Shown one piece after another: positions 37,858-51,499 of a stretch of DNA of 64,000 nt. The notes below the pieces were generated by a model. It was not told where the DNA came from, ran no database searches, and saw only the letters and a list, made by a program, of their open reading frames with translations. Numbering within the stretch: the first letter of the stretch is position 1; every line of letters begins with the position of its first letter. The stretch is from NCBI GenBank assembly GCA_963666205.1, contig OY762654.1, positions 1,952,001 through 2,016,000 of the forward strand, read 5' to 3'. Origin of the DNA: Synergistales bacterium (GTDB lineage Bacteria > Synergistota > Synergistia > Synergistales > JAFGMB01). Position numbers and translations under genes: made by a program.

Positions 37858-39222
37858 TTGAACCCTGAACGAGAACACATGCTTGCGAATGAACCTGTTT
37901 CAAGCCTTATATGGAAGCTTTCCCTTCCAGCTACGGTAGGGATGCTGGTTCAAGCCCTTTATAACCTTGTTGACACCATATATATCGGTCACAGTGTGGG
38001 TGCTCTTGGAATAGCAGGGCTCTCCATCTCTTTTCCGCTGCAGATGATAATAGGTGGGACGGGGGCAATGCTGGGTATGGGTGCAGCCTCAGTCATATCA
38101 AGAAACCTGGGTGCAAAGAATTACAAGAGGGCAGAGGTGGCCTTTGGGAATAACCTTCTTGCCATTCTGATCTTTGGGGGGGGCATTGCCTTTGTCGGTA
38201 AGTTTCTGACTGTTCCGATCCTTCAGGCCTTCGGCGCCACCGAGGCCATATTGCCCTATGCTCTCGACTATATGAGCGTGATCTTTCTTGGGACGCCCCT
38301 TATTGTATTCTGTATGTCCATGAACAATGTTATCCGTTCAGAAGGAGCGGCAAAGGTCGCCATGTATTCAATGGTTATTGGTGCGATTGCTAACATAATA
38401 CTTGATCCGGTATTTATCTTTGTATTGGATATGGGTGTTCGTGGTGCAGCAATTGCAACAGTTATGGCACGACTGGTTGTTATTGGCTGGATTACCTATT
38501 ACTATTCCACGGGACAAAGCTTTTTAAAATTTTCCATCAAATATATGAAGCCCCAGCTGGATATTATGGTTGAGATCATCGCCATAGGCTTCCCTGCACT
38601 GGTCAGGCATGCTGCGTCAAGTTTCGTATTTGGAATGGTCAATCAACTGGCTGCCTTTTATGGGGGGGATATGGCAGTTGCTCTCTTCGGTGTCAACAAC
38701 CGGGTCATTATATTCTCCTTTATGCCTGCAATAGGAATAGCACAGGGAATGCAGCCCATCCTCGGCTACAGCTACGGGGCCGGTTCCTATCACAGGGCCA
38801 GGGAGGTCATACTGAAATCAGCTTTAATAGCTACTGTCTTTTCATCACTTCTGGCCTTAGTTTTTTTTATTTTCCCCAAGACGGTAATATCCATATTTAC
38901 CCATGATCCTGCCCTTCTTGAAATGGGACCCCATGCTTTGAGGCTAATGACCTTCGCTTTGTGTGTAATCGGTTTTCAGATGATAGGGGGAACCCTTTTC
39001 CAGGCTATAGGGAAGGCACTCCCGTCATTCATCCTCAATACATCCAGGCAGATCCTGATACTGATACCTGTCCTGTATTTTCTTCCGAAGTACATAGGTA
39101 TTGATGGTGTATGGCTTGCTTTTCCCATCGCAGACATCCTTTCAACCTTCATAACTGTTCTTGTAGTCATACCACAGATGAAAAGCCTGAAACGGGCTGA
39201 ACTTGCCATGGAAGGAGAGTGA
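37858..39222 (+). CDS. MATE efflux transporter (MepA-like)
   Basis: LYNLVDTIYIG and NIILDPVFIF...GVRGAAIAT; about 12 TM helices. Confidence 0.92.
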   Translation: MNPEREHMLANEPVSSLIWKLSLPATVGMLVQALYNLVDTIYIGHSVGALGIAGLSISFPLQMIIGGTGAMLGMGAASVISRNLGAKNYKRAEVAFGNNLLAILIFGGGIAFVGKFLTVPILQAFGATEAILPYALDYMSVIFLGTPLIVFCMSMNNVIRSEGAAKVAMYSMVIGAIANIILDPVFIFVLDMGVRGAAIATVMARLVVIGWITYYYSTGQSFLKFSIKYMKPQLDIMVEIIAIGFPALVRHAASSFVFGMVNQLAAFYGGDMAVALFGVNNRVIIFSFMPAIGIAQGMQPILGYSYGAGSYHRAREVILKSALIATVFSSLLALVFFIFPKTVISIFTHDPALLEMGPHALRLMTFALCVIGFQMIGGTLFQAIGKALPSFILNTSRQILILIPVLYFLPKYIGIDGVWLAFPIADILSTFITVLVVIPQMKSLKRAELAMEGE

Positions 39223-39710
39223 CTTCCCTAATGACATCTCCGAAATCTATCGGGAAAATGGTGTCCGTTATCCACAGGTACGGTCACAGCTATTTTGATC
39301 ATGAATTTTCTGATCTTGATATAGGGCATGGACCGAGAAATTTTCTTGCAGCTCTTTTCTGTCGGGAGGGTATGACACAGGATGAGCTGAGTGAGTCCCT
39401 TATGATGGACAAGACAACAACTGCCAGGGCGGTGAAACAGCTTGTCCAGGCAGGATATGTGATCCGTAAAAGGGATGAAGATGACCATAGATACTATCAT
39501 CTTTATCTTACTGATAAGGCCAGAGACCTGGCTCCCCGTATATGGGATGCAAGGTCAAAATGGACTGAAGTATTATCGAAGGGATTCACCGAAGAGGAAA
39601 AAGAGCTAATCTATATTTTTCTTGAAAGGGCAGCAGATAATGCAGCTGGATTCAGGGAAGAAGGTTTTCTGTTACAGGTAGAAACAGGTCAGGATAGCGA
39701 TTCGAAATAG
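39219..39710 (+). CDS. MarR family regulator
   Basis: TQDELSE.L.MDKTTTARAVKQL...GYV.R...DHR. Confidence 0.92.
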   Translation: MTSLMTSPKSIGKMVSVIHRYGHSYFDHEFSDLDIGHGPRNFLAALFCREGMTQDELSESLMMDKTTTARAVKQLVQAGYVIRKRDEDDHRYYHLYLTDKARDLAPRIWDARSKWTEVLSKGFTEEEKELIYIFLERAADNAAGFREEGFLLQVETGQDSDSK

Positions 39711-39788
39711 ACAAGTTAACAGGCAGGGAAGATATTATGATCACCTGCCTTTTAACGATGATCCCTGTGTGAGAGAAAGATTCTCTAT

Positions 39789-40184
39789 TCAGTTGCAGTC
39801 CCCTGAAGATACGTTCTGCTGAATCCAGTTCCTGGCTATGATAAGAGAGATTCCACTGGACTCGGTTTTTTCGATGATCATGGTGTCATTAATAAAACGA
39901 AGAAAATCCGGAACATAGAGGGTCATCTCATCGATCTTTATCGCAAAGTAGTTTATATTATCTCTCCTTCTGTCGCGCTCAACCAGAGCGCTCTGTTCCT
40001 CTCCTCAGTAACCCTTGTATATACCCATACGAATGTAGAGATCTGGGCCTTTTTCCCGCATTAGTTCTTTTACGGATTCCGATGCCACCACTGTTATGTG
40101 ATCAGATTGTCCCGATAATGCAGCTGGTACGGAAACATATAAGAATACAATGAATATGGCTGTTAAAGCTGAAGATCTCTTCAT
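39789..40184 (-). CDS. Putative exported selenoprotein (131 aa, Sec at codon 60), HesB/CC-Se-motif-like
   Basis: RBS gggagga; signal peptide; in-frame TGA at 40007-40005 (KGY-U-GEE); the frame stays open for 71 more codons; hairpin GCGCUC-UGGUU-GAGCGC whose loop starts 19 nt after the UGA. Confidence 0.65.
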
Positions 40185-40458
40185 GTCTTTTCCTCCCTGT
40201 CATAACTGCTCATCTATTGTAACTTCGATACCATATTAAATACCGAGCTGTACGTGTGGCCGGAACTTAAGACACCACTGAAAAAAGTGTTTACTATTGT
40301 TCGATGAAAATATGTGCGCAGGTCTTTTAAAAAGTATGTCTGAAAGTAGCTTTTGAGTTGAAGAGGTGCTGGAACTATTTAACTTCTTATAGTATGATAT
40401 CACTAAAACAGGATGAATAGATGAAATACTATAACAAGAAAGAAAGGAGGGAGACGAA

Positions 40459-40893
40459 GTGAGAAAAGCTTTAGTTCCCATTGATACCAGTGCCATAAGC
40501 AGATCTCTTATCAGTTATGCTTTTGGATATGCCAGGAAAGAAGGTATTGAGAAGATCGACTTTCTCCATGTGATATCCAAACATGAACAGAGCTGGGATT
40601 ACAGGCTTGCAGAACTTGATGAAAGATTCCTGGCTGACTCCAGGGAACGTTTCATGTCCATGATCAAGGAGCAGATCGATAAAGGAGCAGATGGAGTGGA
40701 CTATGAGCTTGTGATAGCTTCTGGAGTGCCCTATAGCCAGATAGTTGAAAAGGCAGAGGAAGGCTACGACATAATTCTGATAGGTCACAGAGGCCTTAGC
40801 GATGTTGAGCGGTTCTTTATAGGAAGCGTTGCTGCAAAGGTGGTTCGTCATTCCCCATGTACTGTACTTGTCTATCATCCAAGGGAGGATTAA
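40459..40893 (+). CDS. Universal stress protein (UspA family)
   Basis: LVPID and DIILIGHRG...FFIGSVAAKVVRHSPCTVLV. Confidence 0.92.
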   Translation: MRKALVPIDTSAISRSLISYAFGYARKEGIEKIDFLHVISKHEQSWDYRLAELDERFLADSRERFMSMIKEQIDKGADGVDYELVIASGVPYSQIVEKAEEGYDIILIGHRGLSDVERFFIGSVAAKVVRHSPCTVLVYHPRED

Positions 40894-41043
40894 TGGTGCT
40901 GGATTCGATCTTAAGAGAAAGATTTCAGATTTTACCCTGAAGGGACCGGAACAGGAATAAAGTTAGAGCCGGTCCCTTCTTACTGGATTCTATCCAGATC
41001 TTTTCAGCCAGTATTACACCCTCTGTTTTATATTCTCGCCAAG

Positions 41044-41097
41044 TTGACCCCATTTTCGGACTGAGATATAATATCGGATATCGTATCCGATATCCGA
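41044..41097 (+). promoter_or_regulatory. Sigma-70 promoter with overlapping palindromic operator (probable GntR site)
   Basis: TTGACC-17bp-TATAAT, then ATATCGGATA-tcg-TATCCGATAT (41071-41093). Confidence 0.7.
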
Positions 41098-41163
41098 AAA
41101 ATGAAAAATTCCTCATCAACACGTTTTGAATAATCACTGTGCATGTTAAAGGAGAGGGTAGAT

Positions 41164-41817
41164 ATGAAAAAGATCCCTACAATGGCAGAGGTTGTAATGA
41201 GAGATATCGAGAACAGGATAATGGAGGGTTCCTATTCACCTGGTCAGAAACTGAATGTGGATGAGTTGTCAAGGGAGCTCAACGTGAGCAAGACTCCTGT
41301 CAGGGAGGCCCTTGGAAGACTTGCCAGACAGGGCCTTGTTGAATCTCAGCCCAGGGTTGGATGGAGAGTTTCTCTTTTATCGGGGGAGGAATTCTTTCAG
41401 TTCCAGGAGATAAAACACCTTATCCGGTACTACCTTGCCAGTCATATCGCTCCCTACGTGTCAAAGATAAACTTCCAGAAGATCGAGGCCATGAACAGCA
41501 ATATGCACCATTTTACTAAAACGAGGCAGTTCGGCCGGCTTCTTGAGGAGAATGATAAATTCCATATGGAGATATTCGGAGTATACCCCAACAAAGTTCT
41601 CCTGGAATATCTCGATGAAGTAAGCAGTGCCATAAGATTACAGCGAATTTATATGCTGGAACAGAAACATCTTGACGAAGAGAGTCCCCTTATCGTTCAC
41701 GCGGCAAGAGAGCATGAGGATATTATCGAAGCTTTGAGAAAAGGTGACCAGGATGAAATACTGAGATCCTTTGAAAAACACCAGAGAACTATAAGGGAGT
41801 CATCTCACAACGAGTAG
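41164..41817 (+). CDS. GntR family regulator (FCD domain)
   Basis: PGQKL...LSRELNVSKTPVREAL, NDKFH and EHEDII. Confidence 0.92.
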   Translation: MKKIPTMAEVVMRDIENRIMEGSYSPGQKLNVDELSRELNVSKTPVREALGRLARQGLVESQPRVGWRVSLLSGEEFFQFQEIKHLIRYYLASHIAPYVSKINFQKIEAMNSNMHHFTKTRQFGRLLEENDKFHMEIFGVYPNKVLLEYLDEVSSAIRLQRIYMLEQKHLDEESPLIVHAAREHEDIIEALRKGDQDEILRSFEKHQRTIRESSHNE

Positions 41818-41845
41818 ATGATCCAGGAAGAAAAGGAGTGTTCAA

Positions 41846-44695
41846 ATGATCAGACCTGTATATGATCCAATGAAGGGAAGAATGAGGGTTGCAGCCCTCG
41901 CCTCCGGGTCAGGGAATACCCTGTGGAAAGTACATGATCTTCAACTGGAACTTGAAAAGACCTTTGAAGGCAGTACCTTTGAGGTAGTAGCCCTTTTTTC
42001 GGATAACCCAGGTTCAAAAGCGATTGAAACAGCAGGAGAAAGAGGTATTCCGGTCACTTCAATAGATATAAGGCAGTTCTATGCCGACAGGGAAAAACCT
42101 CTCAGGGACAGAGAAGTGAGAGCTGAGTTCGATAACCGCATAATGGATTTCTTCGAGCAGTATGATCCGGATGTGATCCTTCTGGCAGGTTATGTCTGGG
42201 CTACCACATCGGTAATTACAGGAAGTCTGCCGGTTATAAATGTACATCCTGCAGATCTTTCTGTTAAGGATAGCGATGGAGGAAGGGCATATGCAGGCGC
42301 TAACGGCGTTGGTGCTGCCCTTGCAGACAATGCACAGGAACTCCGGTCCAGTTCTCATCTGGCCACAGATGAGCTGGATGGAGGACCCATAATCCTTATA
42401 AGCCCGCCTGTTCCTGTCGATCAGGATCCTGGTATGGAAGAAAAGGAAAGATTCCGTAAATATCTGAAACTGGTGAATGAACAATCAAGGTCTACAGGGG
42501 CCAGAACGATCCTTGAAATATCACTTGGAAATTTTGGAAGAGATGAAAATGGTCTTCTTCACTATAAGGGAGATCCTGTTCCTGATGGAGTTAAATTGGA
42601 AAGCTGGAGTTCTTTTAAACCTCTCCATGAGAGGGATACTGAAAAACTTCTCAATCCCGGGAGTATTGCCGTTATTGGTGCTTCAGCCAAACCCGGGCTG
42701 GGTAATGCTGTTCTGAGGAACATCGTTGACTATGAATTCAATGGAAGTGTTTTTGCAGTAAATCGAAAAGGCGAAGATGTTCTGGGGGTCAGGGGATACA
42801 GAAGTGTAAAAGAGATCGAAGAGACTGTAGACCTGGCCCTTGTTACTGTACCTGCAAGTTTCGCTGTGGATGTCATAAAAGAGTGCGGAGAAAAGGGAGT
42901 AAGGGCAGTAGCGACCCTGACGGCCGGTTTCAGGGAAATGGGAGAAGAAGGGGCCAGAGCTGAATCTGAAATAATGGAGATCATTAACAGATACAATATG
43001 AGACTCCTTGGTCCCAACTGTATGGGCCTTCTTAATACCGACCCGCAGGTCAGACTTCATTCCAATATGCTTCAGAACATCCCTGCCAGGGGTCCCATAG
43101 GACTCATTACACAGAGTGGGGCCATCGGAGCGGCCATGCTTGACTGGGCCGAAGAGCTAGGTCTCGGATTTTCCATGATCACTTCCACGGGAAATCAGCC
43201 CGATCTCAACATCTGTGACCTTTTACCCCTCTATGCCCTGGACCCCGGAACGAAGGTCATTCTTGCATATCTTGAAATGATCCCTGAACCTGCGAGATTT
43301 GCAAGGATTCTTTCCAGGGTGAATAAAATTAAACCGGTCATTATCCTCAAGTCTGGAAGGACAGAGGCTGGTGCCGCCGCCGCAAGGTCTCACACGGGAA
43401 GTATGGCCGGAAATGAACAGATCGCTGAAGCACTTATCCAGAAGACAGGGGCTCTCAGGGTGAACACTCTGGAAGAAGCCTTTCTCCTGGCTTCGGCCCT
43501 CGGACGGATGCCGAAAGTGAGAGGCAACCGGGTGGGAATCATAAGCAATGCGGGTGGGCCAGGTACCCTTGTGGCCGACGCCCTCCATGATCTGGGTTTT
43601 GAACTCCCGGTTCTTTCCGATGAACTGAGAGACAGTCTGGCAAAGGACATTCTTCCCCAGGCTTCGACTGCGAATCCCCTTGATCTTGTTGCCACTGCTG
43701 CGCCTGAACATTATGGCAAAGCTTCCGGACTTATGGCGGAAAGCGGCATATACGATGCGCTTATAGTTATAATGGTACCCCCCGTAACTGTAGAGACAGG
43801 TTCCGTGGCCCAGGCCATGATCGATTCTCTCAAGGATATCGATATTCCTGTCCTTACTTGTTTCTTCGGCCCTAAAATGGGTAGAGCCGGGCGTAATGTC
43901 ATGCTTGAAGGTAAGATACCCTCTTTCCCCTTTCCTGAACAGACTGCTCAGGTCCTCAACCTCATGAGAGAGACAGAAACACCGGAAAAAGATGCAGCAG
44001 CTTACCCCTCCGCGGTTCCAGCTAGAGAACTAAAGAATACCAGGTCCCTTTTCAAAGGGACTGCCGGTACTTTTCTCCCCCCGGAAAAGTGCCAGACCCT
44101 GCTCATGTCATATGGATTCAAGGTAGCAAGATCCATTCTGGTGTTATCCCCTCAGGAGGTTGATGGCCTGGACTTGAAATTTCCTGTAGTTGCGAAGATA
44201 GATCACAGCGATATTATTCATAAATCCGATAGCGGGGGGGTTATTCTTGACATTGCCGATAAAGGCTCTCTTAAAAAGGTAGTAACCGAAATGTTTTCAA
44301 AGTTTCCCGGGGCAAGGGGTGTGCTGGTACAGGAACAGGTTTGCGGAAATGTGGAGGTGATACTTGGAGCGAAAAGTGACCCGGCCCTTGGTCATGTCGT
44401 TCTGGCTGGCTATGGTGGAGTTGGGGTTGAGGTATTTAAGGATGTGTCACTGGGTCACGTTCCCTTCGACGGGGTAAGTGCCCGGAAGATGCTGAAAGAC
44501 CTGAAGTGTTACCGGATCCTGGAAGGATACAGGGGAAAGCCGGGAGTGGACCTTGAAAACCTAGAAGACCTCATAATGAAAATGCAGGGTCTTCTTATCA
44601 GTAATCCCGAAATAGAAGAGATGGACCTGAATCCCCTTATCTTTGACGGTAAGGAATTTATCGTAGCCGATTACAGGATAAAGATAGCAGGTTAA
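41846..44695 (+). CDS. Fusion of a PurN-like folate-dependent formyltransferase and an ADP-forming acyl-CoA ligase (alpha + beta)
   Basis: N-terminal ~250 aa: SGSGN, LAGY, INVHPAD, LDGGPI. Remainder: IAVIGAS, GPNCMG, QSGA, SHTGSMAG, NAGG, NPLD, HKSDSGGV, DLNP. Confidence 0.85.
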   Translation: MIRPVYDPMKGRMRVAALASGSGNTLWKVHDLQLELEKTFEGSTFEVVALFSDNPGSKAIETAGERGIPVTSIDIRQFYADREKPLRDREVRAEFDNRIMDFFEQYDPDVILLAGYVWATTSVITGSLPVINVHPADLSVKDSDGGRAYAGANGVGAALADNAQELRSSSHLATDELDGGPIILISPPVPVDQDPGMEEKERFRKYLKLVNEQSRSTGARTILEISLGNFGRDENGLLHYKGDPVPDGVKLESWSSFKPLHERDTEKLLNPGSIAVIGASAKPGLGNAVLRNIVDYEFNGSVFAVNRKGEDVLGVRGYRSVKEIEETVDLALVTVPASFAVDVIKECGEKGVRAVATLTAGFREMGEEGARAESEIMEIINRYNMRLLGPNCMGLLNTDPQVRLHSNMLQNIPARGPIGLITQSGAIGAAMLDWAEELGLGFSMITSTGNQPDLNICDLLPLYALDPGTKVILAYLEMIPEPARFARILSRVNKIKPVIILKSGRTEAGAAAARSHTGSMAGNEQIAEALIQKTGALRVNTLEEAFLLASALGRMPKVRGNRVGIISNAGGPGTLVADALHDLGFELPVLSDELRDSLAKDILPQASTANPLDLVATAAPEHYGKASGLMAESGIYDALIVIMVPPVTVETGSVAQAMIDSLKDIDIPVLTCFFGPKMGRAGRNVMLEGKIPSFPFPEQTAQVLNLMRETETPEKDAAAYPSAVPARELKNTRSLFKGTAGTFLPPEKCQTLLMSYGFKVARSILVLSPQEVDGLDLKFPVVAKIDHSDIIHKSDSGGVILDIADKGSLKKVVTEMFSKFPGARGVLVQEQVCGNVEVILGAKSDPALGHVVLAGYGGVGVEVFKDVSLGHVPFDGVSARKMLKDLKCYRILEGYRGKPGVDLENLEDLIMKMQGLLISNPEIEEMDLNPLIFDGKEFIVADYRIKIAG

Positions 44696-44760
44696 TACAA
44701 CGAACATGTACTCTCAAGACCAGCAGTTCAGAATAAATTATTTTGCCAGGAGGTAATTCG

Positions 44761-45978
44761 ATGGGATACAGAGAAGATGGTAAATGGTGGGTTTCACCGG
44801 CTAATTATACGGAAGAAGTTACAGGTAATTACAACTTCGCTGAAAAGATCGAGATTCTTGATACGACCCTGAGGGATGGAGAGCAGCAGCCCGGGATCAT
44901 TTTTACCAGGGACGAAAAGGTCTCTATTGCCAGGAAACTGTCGGAGGTCGGAGTTCACAGGATAGAAGCAGGAACACCCGCGGCATCCCAGGAAGATGCA
45001 GATGCCATAAAGGCGATCGTTGACGAGGGGCTTGATTCGAAGATATTCTGTTTTTCCCGCAATATGGTAAAGGACATGGAACTGGCAAAATCCCTTGGAG
45101 TACATGGGGTTCTTGCCGAGATGATCGGAAGCGAGCAGATGCTCAGATACGGGAAAAAATGGACCCCGGAACAGGCCATTGAAGCATGTGTTGAGGCTAC
45201 CCGGGCTGCTCATGAAATGGGTATGTATGTCACCTTTTTCCCTGCAGATGGCTCGAGAGCAGAATTGAATTATCTTCTTGACTTTGTACAGGCAGTAGCT
45301 GAGGGCGGACACATCGATTCACTCGCACTGGTGGATACCTTCGGAACTTTCTCTCCGGAAGGTGCAGCCTTCATGGTAAGAAAACTCAAGGAGAGATTCG
45401 ATTTTCCGATAGAGGCACATTTCCACAGTGATTACGATCTTGGTGTCGCAACTACTCTTGCCGCCCTTGTGGCTGGAGCAGAAGTGGCTCATGTAACTGT
45501 CAACGGGATAGGCGAACGGGCAGGAAGTGCACCTCTTGGCGCTGTAGCCCTTTCCCTGGAGGCTCTTTACGGTCAGAAAACCGGGATCAGACTTGAAAAA
45601 CTGAAGGAACTTTCAGAAATGGTGGTTGAATACTCAAGGTTCCCGGTATGGCCCATTAAAGCAGTTGACGGAGATCGTCTATTCGGATGGGAAACAGGAC
45701 TTCCATCAAGTCTTTGGGTAAATGCAAAGGAAACCAATCCCCTTATAATGCTGCCCTATCACTATACTCTGACGGGTCAGCAGGAGCCTGTCCTTTATCT
45801 TGGAAAGAAAAGCGGTAAGGATAATCTGAAATACTGGCTGGATAAGGCTGGTGTGGAAATAGACGATAACCAGCAGAAGGAACTTCTGCAGATGGTGAAG
45901 GCAAGGTCTATAGAGATGAAGAGGGATCTTGACATGGATGATTTTAAATCCCTGCTGAGTGCCCTTGGATCAAGGTAG
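44761..45978 (+). CDS. DRE-TIM metallolyase (homocitrate/isopropylmalate synthase-like, no regulatory domain)
   Basis: DTTLRDGEQ, DTFG, HFHSDY.LG and NGIGERAG motifs. Confidence 0.85.
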   Translation: MGYREDGKWWVSPANYTEEVTGNYNFAEKIEILDTTLRDGEQQPGIIFTRDEKVSIARKLSEVGVHRIEAGTPAASQEDADAIKAIVDEGLDSKIFCFSRNMVKDMELAKSLGVHGVLAEMIGSEQMLRYGKKWTPEQAIEACVEATRAAHEMGMYVTFFPADGSRAELNYLLDFVQAVAEGGHIDSLALVDTFGTFSPEGAAFMVRKLKERFDFPIEAHFHSDYDLGVATTLAALVAGAEVAHVTVNGIGERAGSAPLGAVALSLEALYGQKTGIRLEKLKELSEMVVEYSRFPVWPIKAVDGDRLFGWETGLPSSLWVNAKETNPLIMLPYHYTLTGQQEPVLYLGKKSGKDNLKYWLDKAGVEIDDNQQKELLQMVKARSIEMKRDLDMDDFKSLLSALGSR

Positions 45979-45987
45979 ATCAGAGCC

Positions 45988-47148
45988 ATGTCGGCTGTGA
46001 AGATAGCAGAAAGATTTTCAGATCTGCAGCCTTCTCTGATGGTCAAGGTCTTTCGCGCTGCTGCCCAGGTGGAGGATCTCTCGAATCTTGGAATTGGAGA
46101 GCCGGACTTCAATACTGAACCCGACATAGTGGATGCTGCTGCAAGGGCTGGTAAAGAGGGTTTTACCCATTATCCGCCCCTCCCCGGTTTTCTTGATCTG
46201 AGGCAGGAAATATGTTCCTGGTGGGATAAAAAATACGGACTGAAATCGGTCCCGGATGAGGTATTTGTCACCACAGGAGGCATCCAGTCACCATTTCTTC
46301 TTTTCCAGGCCATACTGGATCCGGGAGATGAGGTTATTGTGACTGAACCTTGTTTTGTCGCCTACTTTCAACAGGTTGAATATAACGGAGGCAGAGTGGT
46401 TACGGTTCCATGTTTCGAGGAGAACGGCTTCAAGCCCATGGCAGAGGATATAGAAAAGGCAATCACTCCCAGGACCAGGGCCATCATGCTGAATTCCCCC
46501 TGTAATCCGACAGGAGCTGTAATTGACCGCGTGGAGCTGGAAAAGATCGCTGCAGTGGTGAAGAAACATGATCTCTTTGTCGTATCTGATGAAATCTATG
46601 AGTCTATCCTTTTCGAGGGAGAACATGTTCCCTTTGCGACCCTTCCGGGAATGAAGGAAAGAACCATGACTGTAGGAGGTTTTTCCAAGTCCCATGCCAT
46701 GACTGGATGGCGTATAGGTTATGCCATTGCTCCTCGTGAGATCCTCAGCCTGATGCAGGTCCTGAGCATTGTTCAATCTTTTGGAGTTAATTCTCTTGCC
46801 CAGAAAGCAGCCCTTTATGCCTTGAAAACACAGGAGAAAAAGGTCATGGAGAGAAGGGACATCTTCAGGGAGAGGGTTGACTATACGCTGGGGCGTCTTA
46901 ATGCAATACCTGGGATCAGCTGTCTGAAACCGGGAGGATCCTTCTATCTCTTCCCCAATATAAGCGGAACAGGAATGAATTCAGAAGAATTCACATTCTG
47001 GCTTCTCGAGAAGGCTAAGGTTGCAGTTATACCCGGTATCTCATTCGGAAAGAGTGGTGAAGGTTATGTAAGGATATCCTGCGCCATGTCCCTGAAAGAT
47101 CTGGAGAAGGCCATGGACAGGATGGAGAATGCTCTGAAAAACAGGTAA
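45988..47148 (+). CDS. PLP-dependent class I/II aminotransferase
   Basis: GEPDF, NSPCNPTG, SDEIY and SKSHAMTGWRIG. Confidence 0.93.
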   Translation: MSAVKIAERFSDLQPSLMVKVFRAAAQVEDLSNLGIGEPDFNTEPDIVDAAARAGKEGFTHYPPLPGFLDLRQEICSWWDKKYGLKSVPDEVFVTTGGIQSPFLLFQAILDPGDEVIVTEPCFVAYFQQVEYNGGRVVTVPCFEENGFKPMAEDIEKAITPRTRAIMLNSPCNPTGAVIDRVELEKIAAVVKKHDLFVVSDEIYESILFEGEHVPFATLPGMKERTMTVGGFSKSHAMTGWRIGYAIAPREILSLMQVLSIVQSFGVNSLAQKAALYALKTQEKKVMERRDIFRERVDYTLGRLNAIPGISCLKPGGSFYLFPNISGTGMNSEEFTFWLLEKAKVAVIPGISFGKSGEGYVRISCAMSLKDLEKAMDRMENALKNR

Positions 47149-47208
47149 CAGAGTGGAATGCAGGATATTATAATATTCATTTTTTTATCACGATAAGGAG
47201 GGAAACTA

Positions 47209-48561
47209 ATGGATAATAAGGGTAAGAGAGATCAGTTCACTTCCGGTTTTGGATTTGTTCTGGCCTCAGCTGGTTCTGCGATCGGTCTGGGAAATATATG
47301 GCGCTTCCCCTATATGACGGGGACTAATGGTGGAGGAGCTTTCGTACTCCTGTACCTTGCAATAGTTCTTCTGGTGGGTGCGACCCTGCTTCTTGTCGAG
47401 TTCACCATTGGCCGCCATGGTCAGGCAAATGCTGTTGCCAGTTATGGCAAAATAAGTAAACCCTTCAAGTGGATAGGTTATCTCGGGGTCTTTACATCCT
47501 TTCCCCTTCTCGCCTATTACGCAGTCGTAGGCGGATGGACCATCTATTACTCCGTGCAGTCAGCTCTGGGTAAGTTGACCAGCGTTCCTGCAGATCAGAT
47601 GGGAGCATTCTTTGGAGGGTTCATAGGTTTAGTTACATCACCGATCATTTACCTGGCCATTTTTCTTATCTTCACCCTTCTCATTGTGGCAAAGGGTATC
47701 TCTGGAGGTATCGAAAAATGGAGCAAGATCCTTATGCCAGCCATGTTCGTGCTTCTTGTCATTCTTCTGGTAAGGTCTGTCACCCTTCCGGGAGCCATGG
47801 AAGGTGTCAAATGGTACCTTAAACCTGATTTCTCCAAGATCAACGGGTCAGTCGTTGTAGCAGCCCTTGGTCAGGCCTTTTTCTCCCTGAGTGTGGGATT
47901 GTCCGGAATGGTTACCTATGGTTCCTACCTGTCAAAGAAAGAGAACCTCACCACCAACACCCTTACCGTTGTTGGTTTCGATACTCTCATAGCTATCCTT
48001 GCCGGTTTTGTAGTATTCCCTGCCGTATTTGCCTTCTCCATGGAGCCCGGCGGTGGACCCGGTCTTGTGTTTATAACCCTTCCCCAGGTTTTCAGTAAAA
48101 TGCCTATGGGGGCCTTTTTCTCCGCATCTTTCTTCCTTCTCCTGCTCTTTGCTGCCCTTACCTCATCCATTTCTATCATGGAAGTTTCCATATCCTACTT
48201 TACTGAAAGCTTCGAGGTATCCCGCAGGCAGATGTCATGGGTATACGGAATAATCGTATTTGCCCTTGCCATACCTGTTTCTCTCAGTTTTGGTATATGG
48301 GGAGATGTCTCTATCCTCGGAAAGGGCATTTTTGACCTTTACGATTACTTCTGCGCCAATCTGGCCCTTCCCTTCTGTGCCTTCATGTGTGCCATTCTCG
48401 TTGGCTGGGTATGGGGCAGGGATAAAGCAATGGCAGAACTTACCAACAATGGAACCATCGATAACTGGTATATACGGATATGGTTCCCCCTTGTAAAGTA
48501 TGTTTCACCCCTTGTCGTAGGACTTATTCTGCTTAACGCTATAGGGGTTCTGAAATTCTAG
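47209..48561 (+). CDS. Sodium-dependent amino-acid transporter (NSS/SNF family)
   Basis: GSAIGLGNIWRFPY, NGGGAF and QAFFSLS. Confidence 0.93.
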   Translation: MDNKGKRDQFTSGFGFVLASAGSAIGLGNIWRFPYMTGTNGGGAFVLLYLAIVLLVGATLLLVEFTIGRHGQANAVASYGKISKPFKWIGYLGVFTSFPLLAYYAVVGGWTIYYSVQSALGKLTSVPADQMGAFFGGFIGLVTSPIIYLAIFLIFTLLIVAKGISGGIEKWSKILMPAMFVLLVILLVRSVTLPGAMEGVKWYLKPDFSKINGSVVVAALGQAFFSLSVGLSGMVTYGSYLSKKENLTTNTLTVVGFDTLIAILAGFVVFPAVFAFSMEPGGGPGLVFITLPQVFSKMPMGAFFSASFFLLLLFAALTSSISIMEVSISYFTESFEVSRRQMSWVYGIIVFALAIPVSLSFGIWGDVSILGKGIFDLYDYFCANLALPFCAFMCAILVGWVWGRDKAMAELTNNGTIDNWYIRIWFPLVKYVSPLVVGLILLNAIGVLKF

Positions 48562-48589: not shown

Positions 48590-48639
48590 AAATATAAAAG
48601 GCCTCCTGCCGGTTTTTACCGGGGAGGCCTTTTATATTT
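48590..48639. terminator. Bidirectional terminator
   Basis: aaatataaaaggcctcc...ggaggccttttatattt inverted repeat between convergent operons. Confidence 0.8.
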
Positions 48640-48643
48640 CCCT

Positions 48644-49726
48644 TTAGATATCTTCGAGGGGATGAAGGGTGTCTGTCGGAAAAGATAGACCGACATGTTC
48701 TCCGGGGTTGAAGATCCTTCCAGTTACAGGATTTGTCGTGTGGATGGTAAGGTTGGGAAGTCCTTCAGATCTGACCTCGTATTCCACTATATTTCCAAGG
48801 AAAGTCGTCCTTTCTATCTCTGCTGTGAAATCCCCGGTTTTCCCATCTTCTCCTTCTGATAAGGCTATTGCTTCCGGTCTTATGGTAATACGTACCTTAT
48901 CGCCCGGGTGGAATCTGTCCATTCTGCCTTCAAGATCAAAAGTTTTGTTTTTTATTCTGACCACACTGTTCTCCAGAGCTTCTCCCTGAAGAAAGTTTAC
49001 CTTGCCTATGAAGGCTGCCACAAAACTGTTCCTCGGCCGGGCATAAAGTTCTCTCGGAGTTCCTGTCTGTTCTATTTTTCCCCGGTTCATTACAACGACC
49101 CTGTCTGAGATACTCATAGCCTCCGACTGATCATGGGTCACATATACGCTTGTTATGCCAAGCCTTTTCTGCAGAGCCCGTATTTCGATCCGCATCTGTT
49201 CCCTAAGTTTGGCATCAAGATTGGATAGGGGTTCATCGAAAAGAAGAAGTTCCGGTTCCATTATAATGGCTCTTGCCAGGGCGACTCTCTGCTGCTGTCC
49301 GCCGGAAAGCTGGCTTGGCTGACGGTTCTCCAGTCCCTTAAGTCCCACAAGTTCAAGGGAGAGTTCCATCTTTTCACGGATGGTTTTCTGAGGAAGTTTT
49401 TTCAATCTTAACCCGAAGGCTATATTTTCATATACATTAAGATGGGGGAATATGGCATAGGACTGGAAGACCAGAGTGGTATTCCTTTTATTGGGTCCCA
49501 GGTCGTTTACACGTTTTTTCCCAAAGAAAATATCTCCTGAAGTCGGATCTTCAAAACCGGCGATCATTCTCAGCAGTGTGGTTTTACCGCAACCGCTCGG
49601 ACCGAGGAGAGTTACAAGTTCTCCTTCGCCGACATGCAGGTCCACATTGTTAACGGCTATAACTCCAGAATCCTCCTGGTCAAAACTCTGAAATGTCTTT
49701 GTAAGTCCCTTTATCCGAAGTTCCAT
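48644..49726 (-). CDS. ABC transporter ATP-binding subunit (FbpC/PotA-like)
   Basis: GPSGCGKT, LSGGQQQR and LLFDEP; TOBE-like C-terminus. Confidence 0.93.
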   Translation of the reverse strand: MELRIKGLTKTFQSFDQEDSGVIAVNNVDLHVGEGELVTLLGPSGCGKTTLLRMIAGFEDPTSGDIFFGKKRVNDLGPNKRNTTLVFQSYAIFPHLNVYENIAFGLRLKKLPQKTIREKMELSLELVGLKGLENRQPSQLSGGQQQRVALARAIIMEPELLLFDEPLSNLDAKLREQMRIEIRALQKRLGITSVYVTHDQSEAMSISDRVVVMNRGKIEQTGTPRELYARPRNSFVAAFIGKVNFLQGEALENSVVRIKNKTFDLEGRMDRFHPGDKVRITIRPEAIALSEGEDGKTGDFTAEIERTTFLGNIVEYEVRSEGLPNLTIHTTNPVTGRIFNPGEHVGLSFPTDTLHPLEDI

Positions 49727-49727
49727 C

Positions 49728-51425
49728 TCATATTTCCTCCTGAATCTGGATTGCACTTATTCCGCCGGCCCTTCCTGGAACCAGCCTGCTGATAACTACA
49801 ATTGCAAAAAGAACTATCCCTACAAGAATAACGCTGAAGGCGGCAGCAACTCCAAGTCTTCCTGAGCCCACCTGGCTGAGTATCTGGACTGTAAGTAGAT
49901 TCCAATGAGCGGACACCAGGAAAATGGCCGCGCTTATTGCCGTCATTGCCCGCACAAAGGCAAAAACCAGGCCCGAGAAGAAAGCAGGGGCTATGAGGGG
50001 AAGGGTGATCTTTCGGAAAGTCGTAACGCCATCGGCTCCAAGGTTGCGGGCTGCCTCTTCGATGGATGGATCTATCTGTCTGAGTACGGCAATACCTGAC
50101 TGTATTCCTACAGGGATGTACCTGAAAACGAAATTCAGTACAAGAATTGATAATGTGCCGATGAGAATAAGGGGCGGTTTGTTGAAGGCCAGAATGTAGC
50201 CTATACCAACAACAGTACCGGGGACAGCAAAGTTCAGGATAGATGTGAATTCAAGAGAGGCTTTGCCAGGAAAGGAAAGCCTGACCACCATAAAAGCTAT
50301 CAGCATGCCCAACAGGCCAGATACAGGAGTGGATAGCAGGGCTATTATCAGGGTGTCCTTTATGGTATCAAGGCCAACGCTGAAAGCATATATGAAATGT
50401 TTCAGGGTAAGGGTGAAATCATATCCCCAGACTGAAGTGAAAGCGCCCACTGTTATGGTTCCATAGAACATGATCACCAGCATGGCAAAGATCGTTACAC
50501 AAAAATAGAGGACCCTTCCTGCTCTCCTGCTGACCAGTTTTGATGATGAAGCCACTGGTTTGCCTGTAATGGTGGTGTACTGTTTTTTCTGGAGGTAATA
50601 TCTCTGGATCACAAATGCTGTTACTGAAGGTAGAAGAAGTACAACTGCAAGGGCGGCACCCAGGGGCAGATTGAAGGATCCGGTTATTTCGAGATATGCC
50701 TGGGTGGCGAGCATGGGGAAACGGCTTCCTGCCAGAACCAGGGGATTACCGAAATCTGCAAGGGATTCTATCATGACTACCAGGAAGGCGCTGGCTATTC
50801 CAGGCAGGCTCAGGGGCAGGGTTACTTTCATAAATGTCTGCATTCTTGTTGCTCCTACATTCATGGCAGCATCTTCCAGAGTAGGGTTGAGGGAATCCAG
50901 GACTCCCCTTAATGTCAGATATGCTACGGGAGCAAAGGTGAAGATCTGTGACAGAACTACCCCCTTGAATCCATAGATCGAAAAATTCCTGATCCCAAGG
51001 ACCCCCCGTGTTATAAGGCCGTGTGACCCAAAGAGCATAAGTATGGAGAGGGCGCTTGTAAAGGGAGGAGAAATGATAGGTAAAATAAAAAGTACATGGA
51101 GAAACCTTTTACAGGGTATGTTGGTCCTTACAATTGTAAAGGCAGCCAGATATCCTGTTACAACACCTGTAAAACCGGTTATAATGCCTACAAAAAGGCT
51201 GTTCCAGAGGGCATTACGCAGGTATCTGAAACGGATGAACCTGTTATAGTTGGCCAGTGAAAACCCTCCATCCATGGTCTGGAAGCTTTTTACCAGAACG
51301 GACAGCAGGGGATATATCACAAATATTATCAGAGACAGGGCTGTAAACCCTGTTAATAATGCAATGAAAGGGTCTCGCTTGAGTAATTGAAGGTCCCTCA
51401 TCCCTTTTCTTATCTTCTGATGCAT
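49728..51425 (-). CDS. ABC permease (FbpB/AfuB-like, duplicated domains)
   Basis: Two EAA motifs (LEDAAMNVGA, IEEAARNLGA). Confidence 0.9.
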   Translation of the reverse strand: MHQKIRKGMRDLQLLKRDPFIALLTGFTALSLIIFVIYPLLSVLVKSFQTMDGGFSLANYNRFIRFRYLRNALWNSLFVGIITGFTGVVTGYLAAFTIVRTNIPCKRFLHVLFILPIISPPFTSALSILMLFGSHGLITRGVLGIRNFSIYGFKGVVLSQIFTFAPVAYLTLRGVLDSLNPTLEDAAMNVGATRMQTFMKVTLPLSLPGIASAFLVVMIESLADFGNPLVLAGSRFPMLATQAYLEITGSFNLPLGAALAVVLLLPSVTAFVIQRYYLQKKQYTTITGKPVASSSKLVSRRAGRVLYFCVTIFAMLVIMFYGTITVGAFTSVWGYDFTLTLKHFIYAFSVGLDTIKDTLIIALLSTPVSGLLGMLIAFMVVRLSFPGKASLEFTSILNFAVPGTVVGIGYILAFNKPPLILIGTLSILVLNFVFRYIPVGIQSGIAVLRQIDPSIEEAARNLGADGVTTFRKITLPLIAPAFFSGLVFAFVRAMTAISAAIFLVSAHWNLLTVQILSQVGSGRLGVAAAFSVILVGIVLFAIVVISRLVPGRAGGISAIQIQEEI

Positions 51426-51499
51426 TTAATCCTCCGCAATAAATATTGCCCGGGCCTGAAAAGATCTTTTCAGGCCCGGGCATGGCTTGAATGATTTAT

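Follow-up and report, generated by a model that had tools for sequence, protein, structure and literature searches.

A widely conserved operon in anaerobic bacteria links a PurN-fold formyltransferase to an acyl-CoA synthetase and an atypical DRE-TIM enzyme

Which pathway would call for a formyltransferase and an acyl-CoA synthetase on a single polypeptide? The question is raised by a five-gene operon on the + strand of the 64,000-nucleotide stretch of DNA analysed here (the window), whose second gene encodes a 949-residue protein, FUS (41846-44695), in which a PurN-like formyltransferase (FT) is joined to an ADP-forming acyl-CoA synthetase (ACD). The initial annotation, which recognised the fusion from no characterised pathway, proposed an amino acid route that channels a formyl unit between folate and CoA, with substrate-level phosphorylation. 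Operon and fusion are indeed real and uncharacterised. Far from being unique to this assembly, FUS has at least 120 full-length homologues and its junction is spanned by independent contigs, which together rule out an assembly artefact; the operon is widely conserved in anaerobic bacteria, and our literature search found no published description of it. Its genes appear to encode an undescribed route for processing either an amino acid or a hydroxy acid taken up by the cell. The initial interpretation is partly supported and withstood all three of the refutations it proposed for itself; the channelling is unproven, and HypX and 10-formyl-THF dehydrogenase (FDH) offer it a structural precedent.

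Organisation and control of the operon

The layout first described was borne out, with gntR, FUS, a DRE-TIM enzyme, a class-I aminotransferase and an NSS transporter following one promoter and palindromic operator, at intergenic gaps of 28, 65, 9 and 60 nt. The strong sigma-70-type promoter (TTGACC-17 nt-TATAAT, 41044-41072, + strand) matches at 11/12 positions and is the top of 11 promoter-like sites in the region, a total not in excess of the 9.6 in shuffles. Overlapping its -10 hexamer is the operator (41071-41097, assigned to neither strand), made of two overlapping perfect 10-nt inverted repeats, one at 41071-41093 and the other at 41074-41097, with arms ATATCGGATA/TATCCGATAT and TCGGATATCG/CGATATCCGA; this is the presumed GntR site. 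Palindromes built from this half-site, GATATCG/CGATATC, also lie 5' of gntR in distant orthologous loci, where the regulator is only 38-42% identical, and their recurrence in these upstream sequences exceeds chance. The regulator (224 residues, 41143-41817, + strand; GntR 6e-20) has an FCD effector domain (3.4e-9) and its gene precedes FUS in 11/11 Synergistota loci. From its sequence the operon reads as a GntR-controlled unit, catabolic or assimilatory in role. Downstream, a GC-rich hairpin with A- and T-runs at its sides (48590-48639, likewise without strand), read from the sequence and not listed by the scan that gave the promoter sites, is likely to be a bidirectional terminator between this operon and a convergent ABC-transporter operon.

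The fusion protein and its conserved partners

Residues 1-262 of FUS (41846-42631, + strand) form a PurN-fold FT domain of 'HPADL' subtype, where this genome's own PurN has HPSxL. The AF2 model of this half (pLDDT 95.3) has E. coli PurN as its best Foldseek match (1cde, TM 0.87), and like PurN the domain (Formyl_trans_N, 13-186) keeps the phosphate-loop motif SGxG (SGSG, 20-23) and the N-x-H...D set, with N132 and H134 in INVHP (131-135), D137, and D178 in LDGGP (177-181). H134, P135, D137, L138 and D178 are invariant in 78/78 orthologues, but the Asn, present here, is replaced by Gly in 11 of the 78. The claim that both halves retain their catalytic residues stands, with this correction for the Asn among orthologues. 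Unlike PurN, FUS scores 65 bits on the curated NCBIfam PurN model (cut-off 150) and has no pur context, no pur genes lying near the operon, as first noted, and the genome's intact purM-purN-purH operon being ~0.86 Mb distant. The FT half is thus not the only GAR transformylase of this genome, and with purM-purN-purH and two FTHFS genes elsewhere the FUS operon is not housekeeping. The FT half has relatives that match the same profile at 1e-39 to 1e-58 and carry a fused PurD (P0136) or 5-formyl-THF cyclo-ligase (5/5 such cyclo-ligase fusions tested), and FTHFS is found within the cluster at L104, L091 and L058, which makes folate dependence plausible.

The remainder of the chain (residues 263-949, 42632-44695, + strand) is a complete ACD with its alpha and beta parts in series: CoA_binding (271-397), Succ_CoA_lig (415-552), Ligase_CoA_2 (563-697) and ATP-grasp_5 (742-947). 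The entire ACD domain set recurs in the acetate-, 4-hydroxybutyrate- and 3-hydroxypropionate-CoA ligases, Pat and DddX, as do both phosphohistidines, here His516 (SHTG, 515-518) and His792 (HKSD, 792-795), which are kept in 50/50 sequences of the fusion and its orthologues; among solved structures the closest is 4-hydroxybutyrate-CoA ligase [ADP-forming] (8wzu, 382 bits). No characterised ACD, however, is described with an N-terminal PurN-like domain, and FUS misses all equivalog cut-offs, including that for acetate-CoA ligase alpha (460 against 567). Multi-domain relatives do exist, namely a protein acetyltransferase (chains of 877-886 residues) and a DMSP lyase, which we take to be Pat, with its GNAT domain, and DddX; a domain search found no GNAT domain in FUS.

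A CoA enzyme accompanies FT in every architecture seen, and four unrelated enzyme types fill this place. FT and ACD are fused in 46 aligned loci and split yet adjacent in three (L090, L105, L106), while elsewhere FT adjoins a family-III CoA-transferase (L070, L079, L082, L084) that scores highest with CaiB, not Frc (247 vs 115-120 bits), a family-I CoA-transferase (L092) or an AMP-forming enzyme of the benzoate-CoA-ligase family (the L109-L126 group).

The third component is an HMGL-like DRE-TIM enzyme resembling isopropylmalate synthase (IPMS) and homocitrate synthase (HCS), for which the ORF list gives a TTG start at 44743; an AGGAGG followed by ATG at 44761 yields 405 residues (44761-45978, + strand), in agreement with the gene-called product. 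By eye from alignments it is ~30-35% identical to the IPMS, homocitrate and citramalate synthases, and it keeps their R-D-G-E-Q motif and H-x-H metal ligands (both in 45/45 orthologues), as well as subdomain II. Unlike them it has no LeuA_dimer domain in a domain search, falls short of the IPMS subfamily model (306 against 517), is accompanied by an importer and either an aminotransferase or a dehydrogenase instead of isomerase and dehydrogenase partners, and differs at three conserved positions in FFPADG, which replaces S-x-E-D, and WETGLP, which replaces H-x-x-G-I-H: where the synthases have the Glu and the two His, 45/45 orthologues have Ala or Ser, Trp/Tyr and Pro, respectively. The Glu and His are presumably the residues that enolise acetyl-CoA in canonical IPMS/HCS enzymes, and their absence makes a textbook acetyl-CoA Claisen condensation doubtful; the metal/2-oxoacid site is kept. 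The genome also has three paralogous DRE-TIM modules that operate with no FT at all, and for two of these the 10-kb stretch read contains no CoA ligase either, so the DRE-TIM step may need no special CoA ester. One paralogue, a neighbour of genes for 2-oxoacid:ferredoxin oxidoreductase and SucCD, is a candidate Re-citrate synthase; if it is one, loss of the Glu and His would not be enough to exclude acetyl-CoA chemistry.

Among metagenome loci flanked by 4 kb or more on each side, 24 of 25 have a DRE-TIM gene no more than 7 kb from FT; where the flanks total 6 kb or more the figure is 42/49, and the gene is present in all nine Synergistota loci where the contig runs on beyond FUS. This neighbour is therefore strongly conserved, whereas the aminotransferase and NSS transporter are replaced in many loci by a D-2-hydroxyacid dehydrogenase and a TRAP transporter. 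As these neighbourhoods define it, the invariant core is a PurN-fold FT, an enzyme predicted to make or use a CoA thioester (here the complete ACD fused to FT) and the atypical IPMS-like DRE-TIM enzyme.

Feeding modules and a proposed pathway

The genes that feed this core are interchangeable. Here they encode a class-I PLP aminotransferase (386 residues, 45988-47148, + strand), nearest the Pyrococcus AspAT/aromatic aminotransferase (1gd9, 313 bits; 1dju, 311 bits), and a Na+-coupled NSS/SNF amino acid transporter (450 residues, 47209-48561, + strand), whose nearest solved relative is 4us3, presumably MhsT (379 bits, against ~175 bits for LeuT). The pair is found in L036 and L042, the aminotransferase is present in L043 and L045, and L041 has NSS only; a BCAA-type ABC system is found in L080 and L101, an APC permease-like ORF in L104, and a TRAP importer with a D-2-hydroxyacid dehydrogenase in L037, L040, L044 and others. 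Since either an aminotransferase with an amino acid importer or the dehydrogenase with TRAP can serve, a 2-oxo acid is the likely common node of the variant loci, and the amino acid pathway first suggested would be better called a 2-oxo acid pathway.

We propose that the NSS transporter takes up a probably hydrophobic or aromatic amino acid, which the aminotransferase would convert to a 2-oxo acid, as TRAP and D-2-hydroxyacid dehydrogenase would a 2-hydroxy acid in the sister loci. The DRE-TIM enzyme would make or break a C-C bond next to the metal-bound 2-oxo-carboxylate; the carbanion would be the 2-oxoacid enolate, and its partner a CoA thioester. The halves of FUS would work in succession on one shared CoA-bound molecule, the ACD half interconverting acid, ATP and CoA with acyl-CoA, ADP and Pi via His516 and His792, and the PurN-like half moving a formyl group between 10-formyl-THF and the CoA-bound species. 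In the version we favour an amino group on the acyl-CoA would be the formyl acceptor or donor, giving an N-formyl-acyl-CoA; in a slightly less likely one the formyl group would go to the CoA thiol itself, forming formyl-CoA as has been suggested for HypX and FDH. We consider the general frame of this pathway probable. The shared formyl step between THF and a CoA-bound intermediate, drawn by analogy, is more tentative, and our preference between its two versions is slight.

The favoured version follows the logic of PurD→PurN, in which an ATP-grasp ligase joins the carboxyl of an amino acid to a carrier and a PurN-fold enzyme formylates the free amine from 10-formyl-THF; a PurD fusion among the FT relatives recalls it, although the carrier would be CoA in place of phosphoribosylamine. 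In HypX the FT fold is joined to a CoA-binding domain and is proposed to formylate CoA from 10-formyl-THF, and FDH passes the formyl group to 4'-phosphopantetheine; HypX also has an Asp80 near its His (PMC6802093). The invariant D137 of FUS might share the role of this Asp. Like HypX, which makes CO for the maturation of [NiFe]-hydrogenase, and like the FDH hydrolase domain, FUS joins an FT fold to a module using CoA or phosphopantetheine and keeps the His/Asp pair, but its partner is an ATP-coupled ACD rather than a crotonase or ALDH domain, and the FUS operon has no hydrogenase context. The operon also resembles the peptide fermentation route of archaea and Synergistota (aromatic aminotransferase, 2-oxoacid:ferredoxin oxidoreductase, ACD) in its ArAT-like aminotransferase, its ACD with intact ATP-forming machinery and its amino acid importer; no oxidoreductase is encoded in the operon, however, where the DRE-TIM enzyme and formyltransferase occupy its place.

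As a whole this proposal is the best explanation we can offer, and we hold it tentatively. Conservation of the core, the alternative feeding modules, the constant CoA-enzyme partner of FT, the invariant catalytic residues, the residue pattern of the DRE-TIM enzyme, the folate link, the HypX/FDH precedent and the housekeeping purine and FTHFS genes found elsewhere in the genome all argue for it. Against it, the FT is of PurN type, lacking the OB subdomain of the Fmt-type domains in HypX, FDH and Fmt; the catalytic Asn is not invariant; the hydroxyacid/TRAP variants have no gene to supply the amine of an N-formyl-acyl-CoA; and passing a formyl group from an alkyl formamide on to THF would be uphill. 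These genomes already have FTHFS, sometimes in the same cluster, and a formyl-CoA shuttle that yields ATP would be redundant with it, the DRE-TIM paralogues, possibly including a Re-citrate synthase, manage without FT, and gene fusion indicates a shared pathway but not necessarily consecutive steps.

Competing readings

The alternative that survives best, though unlikely, keeps the pathway but dispenses with a shared intermediate, the DRE-TIM enzyme being a CoA-independent lyase or aldolase on a 4-hydroxy-2-oxo acid. This substrate could be derived from an amino acid with a gamma-hydroxy group or from one of the 2,4-dihydroxy acids, for example pantoate or erythronate, and would yield a smaller 2-oxo acid and a C1 or aldehyde unit, the C1 being caught by the folate-binding domain while the ACD half simply harvested ATP from acyl-CoA made downstream by a 2-oxoacid:ferredoxin oxidoreductase. 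A single enzyme, aminotransferase or dehydrogenase, would then suffice before the DRE-TIM step in both variants, the absence of residues aligned to the synthase Glu and His and the FT-free paralogues (two without CoA ligase) would be explained, and oxidoreductase genes do lie close to some loci (L038). In the variant loci the TRAP binding protein is nearest 4p47, 4nq8 and 4p9k. Ligand-bound members of the 4P47 homologue set are described with pantoate or erythronate, in a source that does not name 4NQ8 (0 occurrences; PMC11668362). We take 4NQ8 and 4P9K to belong to that set. But the invariant PurN-type His and Asp suit formyl, not methylene, chemistry, no dehydrogenase is present to lift formaldehyde to the formyl level, and a CoA enzyme, of one or another of four unrelated types, accompanies FT in all the architectures seen.

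Rather unlikely, too, is the strict formyl-CoA shuttle of the initial annotation, in which the FT half would convert 10-formyl-THF and CoA to formyl-CoA, the ACD half would turn formyl-CoA, ADP and Pi into formate and ATP, both perhaps running backwards, and the DRE-TIM enzyme would release formyl-CoA from, or add it to, a 2-oxo acid. Beyond the HypX/FDH precedent and the two retained ACD histidines, it would account for the exchange of ACD for CoA-transferases, and formyl-CoA has no alpha-proton, so that loss of the acetyl-CoA-enolising pair would make sense. Its net reaction, however, is that of FTHFS, the family-III transferase is nearer CaiB than Frc, a benzoate-CoA-ligase-family partner would be odd if the acid were formate, and simple transamination of common amino acids would yield no 3-formyl or 4-oxo 2-oxo acid.

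Less probable still is an anabolic operon making an N-formylated non-standard amino or hydroxy-dicarboxylic acid, with the ACD half spending ATP to activate an amino acid, FT formylating it with FTHFS-supplied 10-formyl-THF, and the DRE-TIM enzyme condensing the product with a 2-oxo acid. Amines are formylated by PurN-type enzymes, the relatives include a PurD::FT fusion, FTHFS lies inside some clusters, and the AMP-forming ligases that partner FT in one clade are unidirectional towards the CoA ester; yet the clusters have importers (NSS, TRAP, ABC, APC) and no exporter, are under substrate-type regulators, show no conserved downstream tailoring genes, and belong to ATP-poor fermenters.

Ordinary biosynthesis, with a normal citramalate, isopropylmalate or Re-citrate synthase and an acetyl-CoA synthetase whose FT domain is either a surplus GAR transformylase or a folate-binding module, inert or regulatory, is very improbable: database labels of the neighbours ('isopropylmalate/homocitrate/citramalate synthase', 'acetate--CoA ligase family protein') would fit, and PurD-fused relatives suggest true GAR transformylases in the wider family, but no LeuCD, LeuB, aconitase or isocitrate dehydrogenase genes lie near the operon, the genome already encodes canonical PurN and LeuA, no curated NCBIfam cut-off is reached, those given above included, the synthase Glu and His positions are changed in all 45 DRE-TIM orthologues, and the cluster-linked FTs form a separate clade (26/117 tips, support 0.90).

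Operon layout and reality of the fusion

The operon (41044-48561) consists of five genes, all on the + strand and bounded by a promoter and a terminator. A promoter scan places a near-consensus TTGACC-17-TATAAT promoter (+) at 41044-41072, and two perfect 10-nt inverted repeats overlapping its -10 hexamer (41071-41097) make up a putative operator. The ORF list and domain matches give gntR/FCD (41143-41817) and the 949-residue fusion (41846-44695), followed by an HMGL-like gene (44761-45978, its start being the ATG at 44761 behind AGGAGG), a class-I aminotransferase gene (45988-47148) and an NSS transporter gene (47209-48561). Beyond the NSS gene, a GC-rich hairpin between A- and T-runs (48590-48639) marks the boundary with a convergent ABC-transporter operon. 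The gntR product pairs a GntR winged helix-turn-helix with an FCD domain and has a palindromic putative operator at its own promoter, as expected of a GntR/FadR-type regulator. Palindromes with the half-sites GATATCG/CGATATC are found upstream of gntR in loci L085, L042, L041, L059, L061, L093, L060, L112 and L037, whose GntR proteins are only 38-42% identical; the group of loci with 58-62% identical GntR lacks them.

Strain variation around the operator and the fusion gene is confined to intergenic regions and leaves coding frames intact: in related strains from two other runs, the gap between gntR and the fusion gene is lengthened by 5 nt (AAGAA inserted at 41827; X5, X9), and 1 nt is missing at the operator edge (41097; X5, X11). 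A contig from the organism's own run (depth 7.4 vs ~20) misses 558 nt of the NSS gene (47313-47872), which may reflect either a deletion variant at minority frequency or a joint made in assembly. Upstream, a MATE efflux gene, a MarR-family gene overlapping it by 4 nt and a universal stress protein gene (37858-40893) form a unit ended by a perfect 11-bp hairpin (40939-40979) just before the fusion promoter. The convergent ABC-transporter operon downstream (48644-52513, - strand) has as its nearest models the 'putative 2-aminoethylphosphonate' PhnT2/PhnU2/PhnS2, all below cut-offs, and is kept beside the fusion only in the same-genus locus L036. A link of the fusion to phosphonoalanine or phosphonopyruvate was dropped, because this operon is convergent and the sister loci, L036 apart, gave no more than a single weak and partial match to an ABC ATPase (L037).

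The INVHP, LDGGP, SHTG and HKSD motifs quoted in the initial annotation are all present in the fusion, in which Pfam identifies a Formyl_trans_N domain (hereafter the FT half) followed by a full ADP-forming acyl-CoA synthetase set (the ACD half). A protein search recovers at least 120 full-length homologues of 897-973 residues (48-95% identity, at least 95% query coverage) from sources including Synergistaceae, Oscillospiraceae and Thermovirga lienii, annotated there merely as 'acetate--CoA ligase family' or 'CoA-binding domain' proteins. Among 151 Synergistota genomes, 13, the source genome included, encode an N-domain orthologue at E <= 1e-85; a further 39 match more weakly (E >= 1e-10). Contigs assembled from the organism's own run and from an independent activated-sludge run span the junction, which overlapping contigs from a metatranscriptome library also cover; RNA-library contigs span parts of the operon, though as contigs they cannot show transcription. 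The bridging contigs and the homologues together rule out an assembly artefact or a one-off. Separately, locus L045 (G128:C111, 8783-11613) has its fusion matched in two overlapping frames, as is the FTHFS gene after the fusion in L091 (11956-13720), pointing to frameshift or sequencing error in those assemblies.

The source genome is 100% complete and has an intact purM-purN-purH operon (PurN 191 bits), Fmt and two FTHFS genes. The N-domain is therefore not the sole GAR transformylase, in line with the initial reading, and since the genome has its own purM-purN-purH and two FTHFS copies the fusion is neither a housekeeping GAR transformylase nor a replacement for a missing FTHFS. Likewise rejected is replacement of a missing PanB in an alternative ketopantoate route, as the genome encodes PanC and has two PanB genes. 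The FTHFS genes (G000:C1:846360-848018 and 1116685-1118343) score identically and may be a recent duplication or a repeat; one PanB gene (C1:1114728-1115486) has an FTHFS copy 1.2 kb away.

The two halves of the fusion protein and their CoA-enzyme partners

The FT half is a complete PurN-type Formyl_trans_N fold (AF2 pLDDT 95.3), with 1cde as top Foldseek match (TM 0.87 to target) and GAR transformylases as the best-ranked entries. Neither the OB subdomain of Fmt, FDH and HypX in the FT model nor an ECH (crotonase) domain in the fusion was found. The catalytic N-x-H...D set corresponds to N132, H134 and D178. Across 78 orthologues H and D are invariant, while N132 is kept in 67 and is Gly in 11, H171 being Tyr in an equal number; also invariant are G21-S22-G23, GYVWAxT, H134-P135-x-D137-L138, D178-x-G-P, N211 and R215, with S20 and R220 nearly so (76/78 each). 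The PurN equivalog TIGR00639 gives the fusion 65.4 bits, below its cut-off of 150.1, vs 191 for the genome's real PurN.

Searching 1.84 billion representatives with a profile gave 153 FT relatives at E <= 1e-30, and 86 of the 100 near-complete matches listed are free-standing proteins of under 310 residues. H134 is conserved in 116 and D137 in 104 of 117 aligned family sequences, and the 11 motifs printed (nine fusion forms, the window protein and the genome's own PurN) all read HP(A/G)DL save the HPSIL of PurN. A FastTree phylogeny rooted on the source genome's PurN places the cluster-linked FTs in a separate clade of 26 of the 117 tips (support 0.90). In the ESM Atlas the search matched just generic 'formyl transferase domain' clusters, all with scores below 0.9. 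One FT relative is fused to PurD and 5/5 tested others to 5-formyl-THF cyclo-ligase, and an FTHFS gene occurs in-cluster directly after the fusion in L104 and L091 and after the NSS gene in L058. Fold, motifs, PurD and cyclo-ligase fusions and in-cluster FTHFS together make folate dependence of the FT half likely.

The ACD domain set is likewise complete (CoA_binding, Succ_CoA_lig, Ligase_CoA_2 and ATP-grasp_5). H516 (SHTG, alpha part) and H792 (HKSD, beta part), which from the ACD literature we take to be the phosphohistidines, are kept in 50/50 fused or split orthologues. The closest solved relative is 8wzu, an ADP-forming 4-hydroxybutyrate-CoA ligase, and the equivalogs with named substrates (acetate, 4-hydroxybutyrate, 3-hydroxypropionate) are all missed (467/1300, 460/567, 409/1200 and 368/1300, score/cut-off). 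No Pfam match to the GNAT domain of Pat-type protein acetyltransferases occurs in the fusion, and solved protein acetyltransferases are only distant relatives of its ACD part.

FT and ACD are fused in 46 of the aligned loci and split but adjacent in L090, L105 and L106. A lone FT stands with a CaiB-like family-III CoA-transferase in L070, L079, L082 and L084, with a family-I CoA-transferase in L092 and, in the 45% identical L109-L126 clade, with an AMP-forming enzyme of the benzoate-CoA-ligase family and a creatininase-family hydrolase. In every one of these arrangements the FT is accompanied by a CoA enzyme. The family-III enzyme is not supported as a formyl-CoA transferase (CaiB 247 bits vs Frc 115-120). 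The L109-L126 clade has the HMGL-like gene and a TRAP importer a few kb upstream where the contig reaches (L117, L122, L124), and the clade of L121, L124 and L117 may represent another use of the same FT and DRE-TIM pair. Within ~10 kb around the FT these three loci carry benzoate-CoA-ligase-family, creatininase-family, C_GCAxxG_C_C and AIR-synthase-related (not PurM) genes; a purMN pair was rejected for the L109-L126 FTs, the AIRS-like neighbour not being PurM and weakly matching HypE, ThiL and SelD. Human-gut-type loci have a second, unfused ACD of 695 residues beside the HMGL-like gene. Free-standing in the Synergistota genome G056 (L044; G056:C81, 10441-11214), an FT of 257 residues has as its neighbours a BD-FAE-type esterase, a further DctP and the TRAP/dehydrogenase/HMGL set, and no ACD was found on the 14.5-kb stretch covered.

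Modular neighbourhoods and the DRE-TIM enzyme

We compared 11 Synergistota loci, from the 151 genomes sampled, and 80 metagenome loci found with the N-domain alignment and derived from gut, sludge and sediment. In Synergistota gntR precedes the fusion in 11/11, and the HMGL-like gene is present in all nine loci whose contig runs past it; an aminotransferase follows in four and an NSS transporter in three. L037, L040 and L044 instead have DctQ-DctM, a D-2-hydroxyacid dehydrogenase and DctP between the fusion and the HMGL-like gene, and L038 has ORFs of the same sizes, with DctP confirmed. Among the 25 metagenome loci flanked by 4 kb or more on each side, 24 have the HMGL-like gene within 7 kb (the exception is L066), 23 an importer (NSS, TRAP or BCAA-type ABC) and 19 an aminotransferase, D-2-hydroxyacid dehydrogenase or SDR. 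In loci from outside Synergistota a MerR-HTH_3-cupin protein takes the place of GntR as regulator. Of the neighbours first described, the HMGL-like gene is strongly conserved (24/25 and 9/9), and the aminotransferase and NSS genes are not obligatory (4 and 3 of 11 Synergistota loci).

The DRE-TIM enzyme encoded by the HMGL-like gene aligns full-length with homocitrate and isopropylmalate synthases, and is found in Spirochaetaceae, Negativicutes and Deltaproteobacteria records as well. It misses every curated cut-off (best 306.5 vs 517, NF002085; nifV 275 vs 463), and its source names are 'pyruvate carboxyltransferase', 'LeuA family protein' and 'hypothetical protein'. The metal and 2-oxoacid site is kept in 45/45 orthologues (LRDGEQ, R-D(E); HFH, H-x-H). 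In contrast, as alignment to 6ktq, 3rmj, 6e1j, 3eeg and 3ivs indicates, in the enzyme and all 45 orthologues the canonical S-x-E-D is replaced by F-F-P-(A/S)-D and H-x-x-G-I-H by (W/Y)-E-T-G-(L/M)-P, so that Ala/Ser occupies the place of the synthase Glu, and Trp/Tyr and Pro those of the His residues (45/45 each). Presumably it is this Glu and one His of H-x-x-G-I-H that enolise acetyl-CoA in isopropylmalate and homocitrate synthases.

Four enzymes of this FFPxD type are encoded in the source genome; each is accompanied by an importer of its own, and three also by a 2-oxoacid-forming enzyme of their own. The paralogues lie with GntR, an NhaC-type transporter, an aminotransferase and DUF169 (L128, G000:C1:1886524), with a 2-oxoacid:ferredoxin oxidoreductase, SucCD and TAXI-TRAP (L129, G000:C1:1579360), and with GntR, a D-2-hydroxyacid dehydrogenase and DctPQM (L130, G000:C1:2303159). 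As each sits in its own importer module, the family has the look of a general '2-oxo-acid processing' enzyme, and probably stands for a general type of reaction on 2-oxo acids that has gone unrecognised. The oxidoreductase/SucCD paralogue could be a Re-citrate synthase, in which case the missing Glu and His would be no bar to acetyl-CoA chemistry.

Proposed reaction and candidate substrates

From the observed architecture, conserved residues and modular neighbourhoods we infer a route in which an imported amino acid (in sister loci a 2-hydroxy acid) would be turned into a 2-oxo acid. The DRE-TIM enzyme would bring this metal-bound 2-oxo acid, probably as its enolate, together with a CoA thioester, and the fusion would act on that same thioester, its PurN-like half adding or removing a formyl group with THF and its ACD half coupling the thioester to ATP. 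We think that the two halves work one after the other on a single CoA-bound molecule, as they are fused or adjacent in every lineage and FTHFS is at times added to them, not replaced. The intermediate may be an N-formyl-acyl-CoA, analogous to the PurD-to-PurN logic; this version is favoured by the fold being of PurN type, by the relatives fused to PurD and by the redundancy with FTHFS. A formyl-CoA intermediate, following the logic proposed for HypX and FDH (PMC6802093), would also fit; in its favour is that the DRE-TIM enzyme has lost the synthase Glu and His positions. Like HypX, the fusion joins an FT-fold domain to a CoA-binding catalytic domain, but the likeness is one of analogy only since the partner fold differs: HypX has an Fmt/FDH-type N-domain with OB and a crotonase C-domain, whereas the fusion is of PurN type and neither was found.

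The foremost rival to action on a shared thioester is a CoA-independent aldolase with an unrelated ATP harvest downstream; the lost Glu and His speak for it, the CoA enzyme that accompanies the FT throughout against it. Next comes an anabolic route to an N-formylated acid, against which stand the importers in 23/25 well-flanked loci. Ordinary biosynthesis, in a genome already holding purM-purN-purH, is the least likely.

If the FT does use a CoA-bound substrate, it would connect the folate C1 pool of fermenters to their CoA-thioester energy metabolism in a new way, and would be a second, independent case of the chemistry proposed for HypX. The initial annotation did not recognise the fusion from any characterised pathway, and the literature searched, which included few subscription journals, contains no description of fusion or operon. 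Every part is of a known superfamily, yet to our knowledge no pathway explains the combination; the operon recombines known superfamilies, with a real chance of new chemistry. Cultured carriers (Acetomicrobium, Thermovirga lienii, Acidaminobacter hydrogenoformans) make direct testing feasible.

It is a rather improbable extension of the shared-thioester scheme that these strict anaerobes have a previously undescribed redox-neutral, energy-conserving 2-oxo-acid cleavage. The IPMS-derived enzyme would then be a 'thiolase' that splits a 2,4-dioxo-type acid with CoA, yielding a simple 2-oxo acid together with an N-formylated (or formyl) acyl-CoA. Both activated groups would be cashed by the fusion, the formyl passing to THF and then to ATP via the FTHFS of some clusters, and the thioester yielding ATP via the ACD half. 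Concretely, N-formylkynurenine/kynurenine-type substrates would give N-formyl-anthraniloyl-CoA, for which formyl exchange with THF N10 would be near thermoneutral, N10 itself being an aryl amine. Hints of this kynurenine version are a kynureninase in the L104 cluster and near the fusion in four mutually related loci, an ArAT-like aminotransferase, an NSS transporter nearest 4us3, an APC-type permease-like ORF, and the benzoate/aminobenzoate-CoA-ligase-family partner of the distant clade.

Several features hint at the substrate, none of them decisively. The NSS transporter scores 379 bits to 4us3, which we take to be MhsT, a transporter of hydrophobic and aromatic amino acids, and 175 bits to LeuT; BCAA-type ABC systems or the APC permease-like ORF replace it in some loci. 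The aminotransferase is nearest the Pyrococcus AspAT and aromatic aminotransferase. In the variant loci the TRAP binding protein is nearest 4p47, 4nq8 and 4p9k, the latter two of which we presume to belong to the pantoate/erythronate-bound 4P47 set. The ligand-bound members of the 4P47 homologue set are described as carrying pantoate or erythronate in a source that does not name 4NQ8 (PMC11668362).

A bona fide kynureninase (397 bits vs a cut-off of 246) is part of the L104 operon, in the order fusion-FTHFS-kynureninase-aminotransferase. In the closely related L039, L052, L055 and L056 it lies ~6.5 kb from the fusion, with Hsp20 and flavin-reductase genes between. Across the phylum 36 of 151 Synergistota genomes encode kynureninase, 8/13 of the fusion-positive and 28/138 of the fusion-negative, a weak association among kin that are not independent. 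Kynureninase is not supported as an obligate partner, being operonic only in L104 and distant elsewhere. Tryptophan conversion to kynurenine requires O2, and the source organism is a strict anaerobe. The source-genome copy (388 bits vs 246; G000:C1:1938840-1940051, L133:1471-2760) is 55 kb from the fusion, with a MarR-family regulator gene before it and a YitT-family membrane protein gene after.
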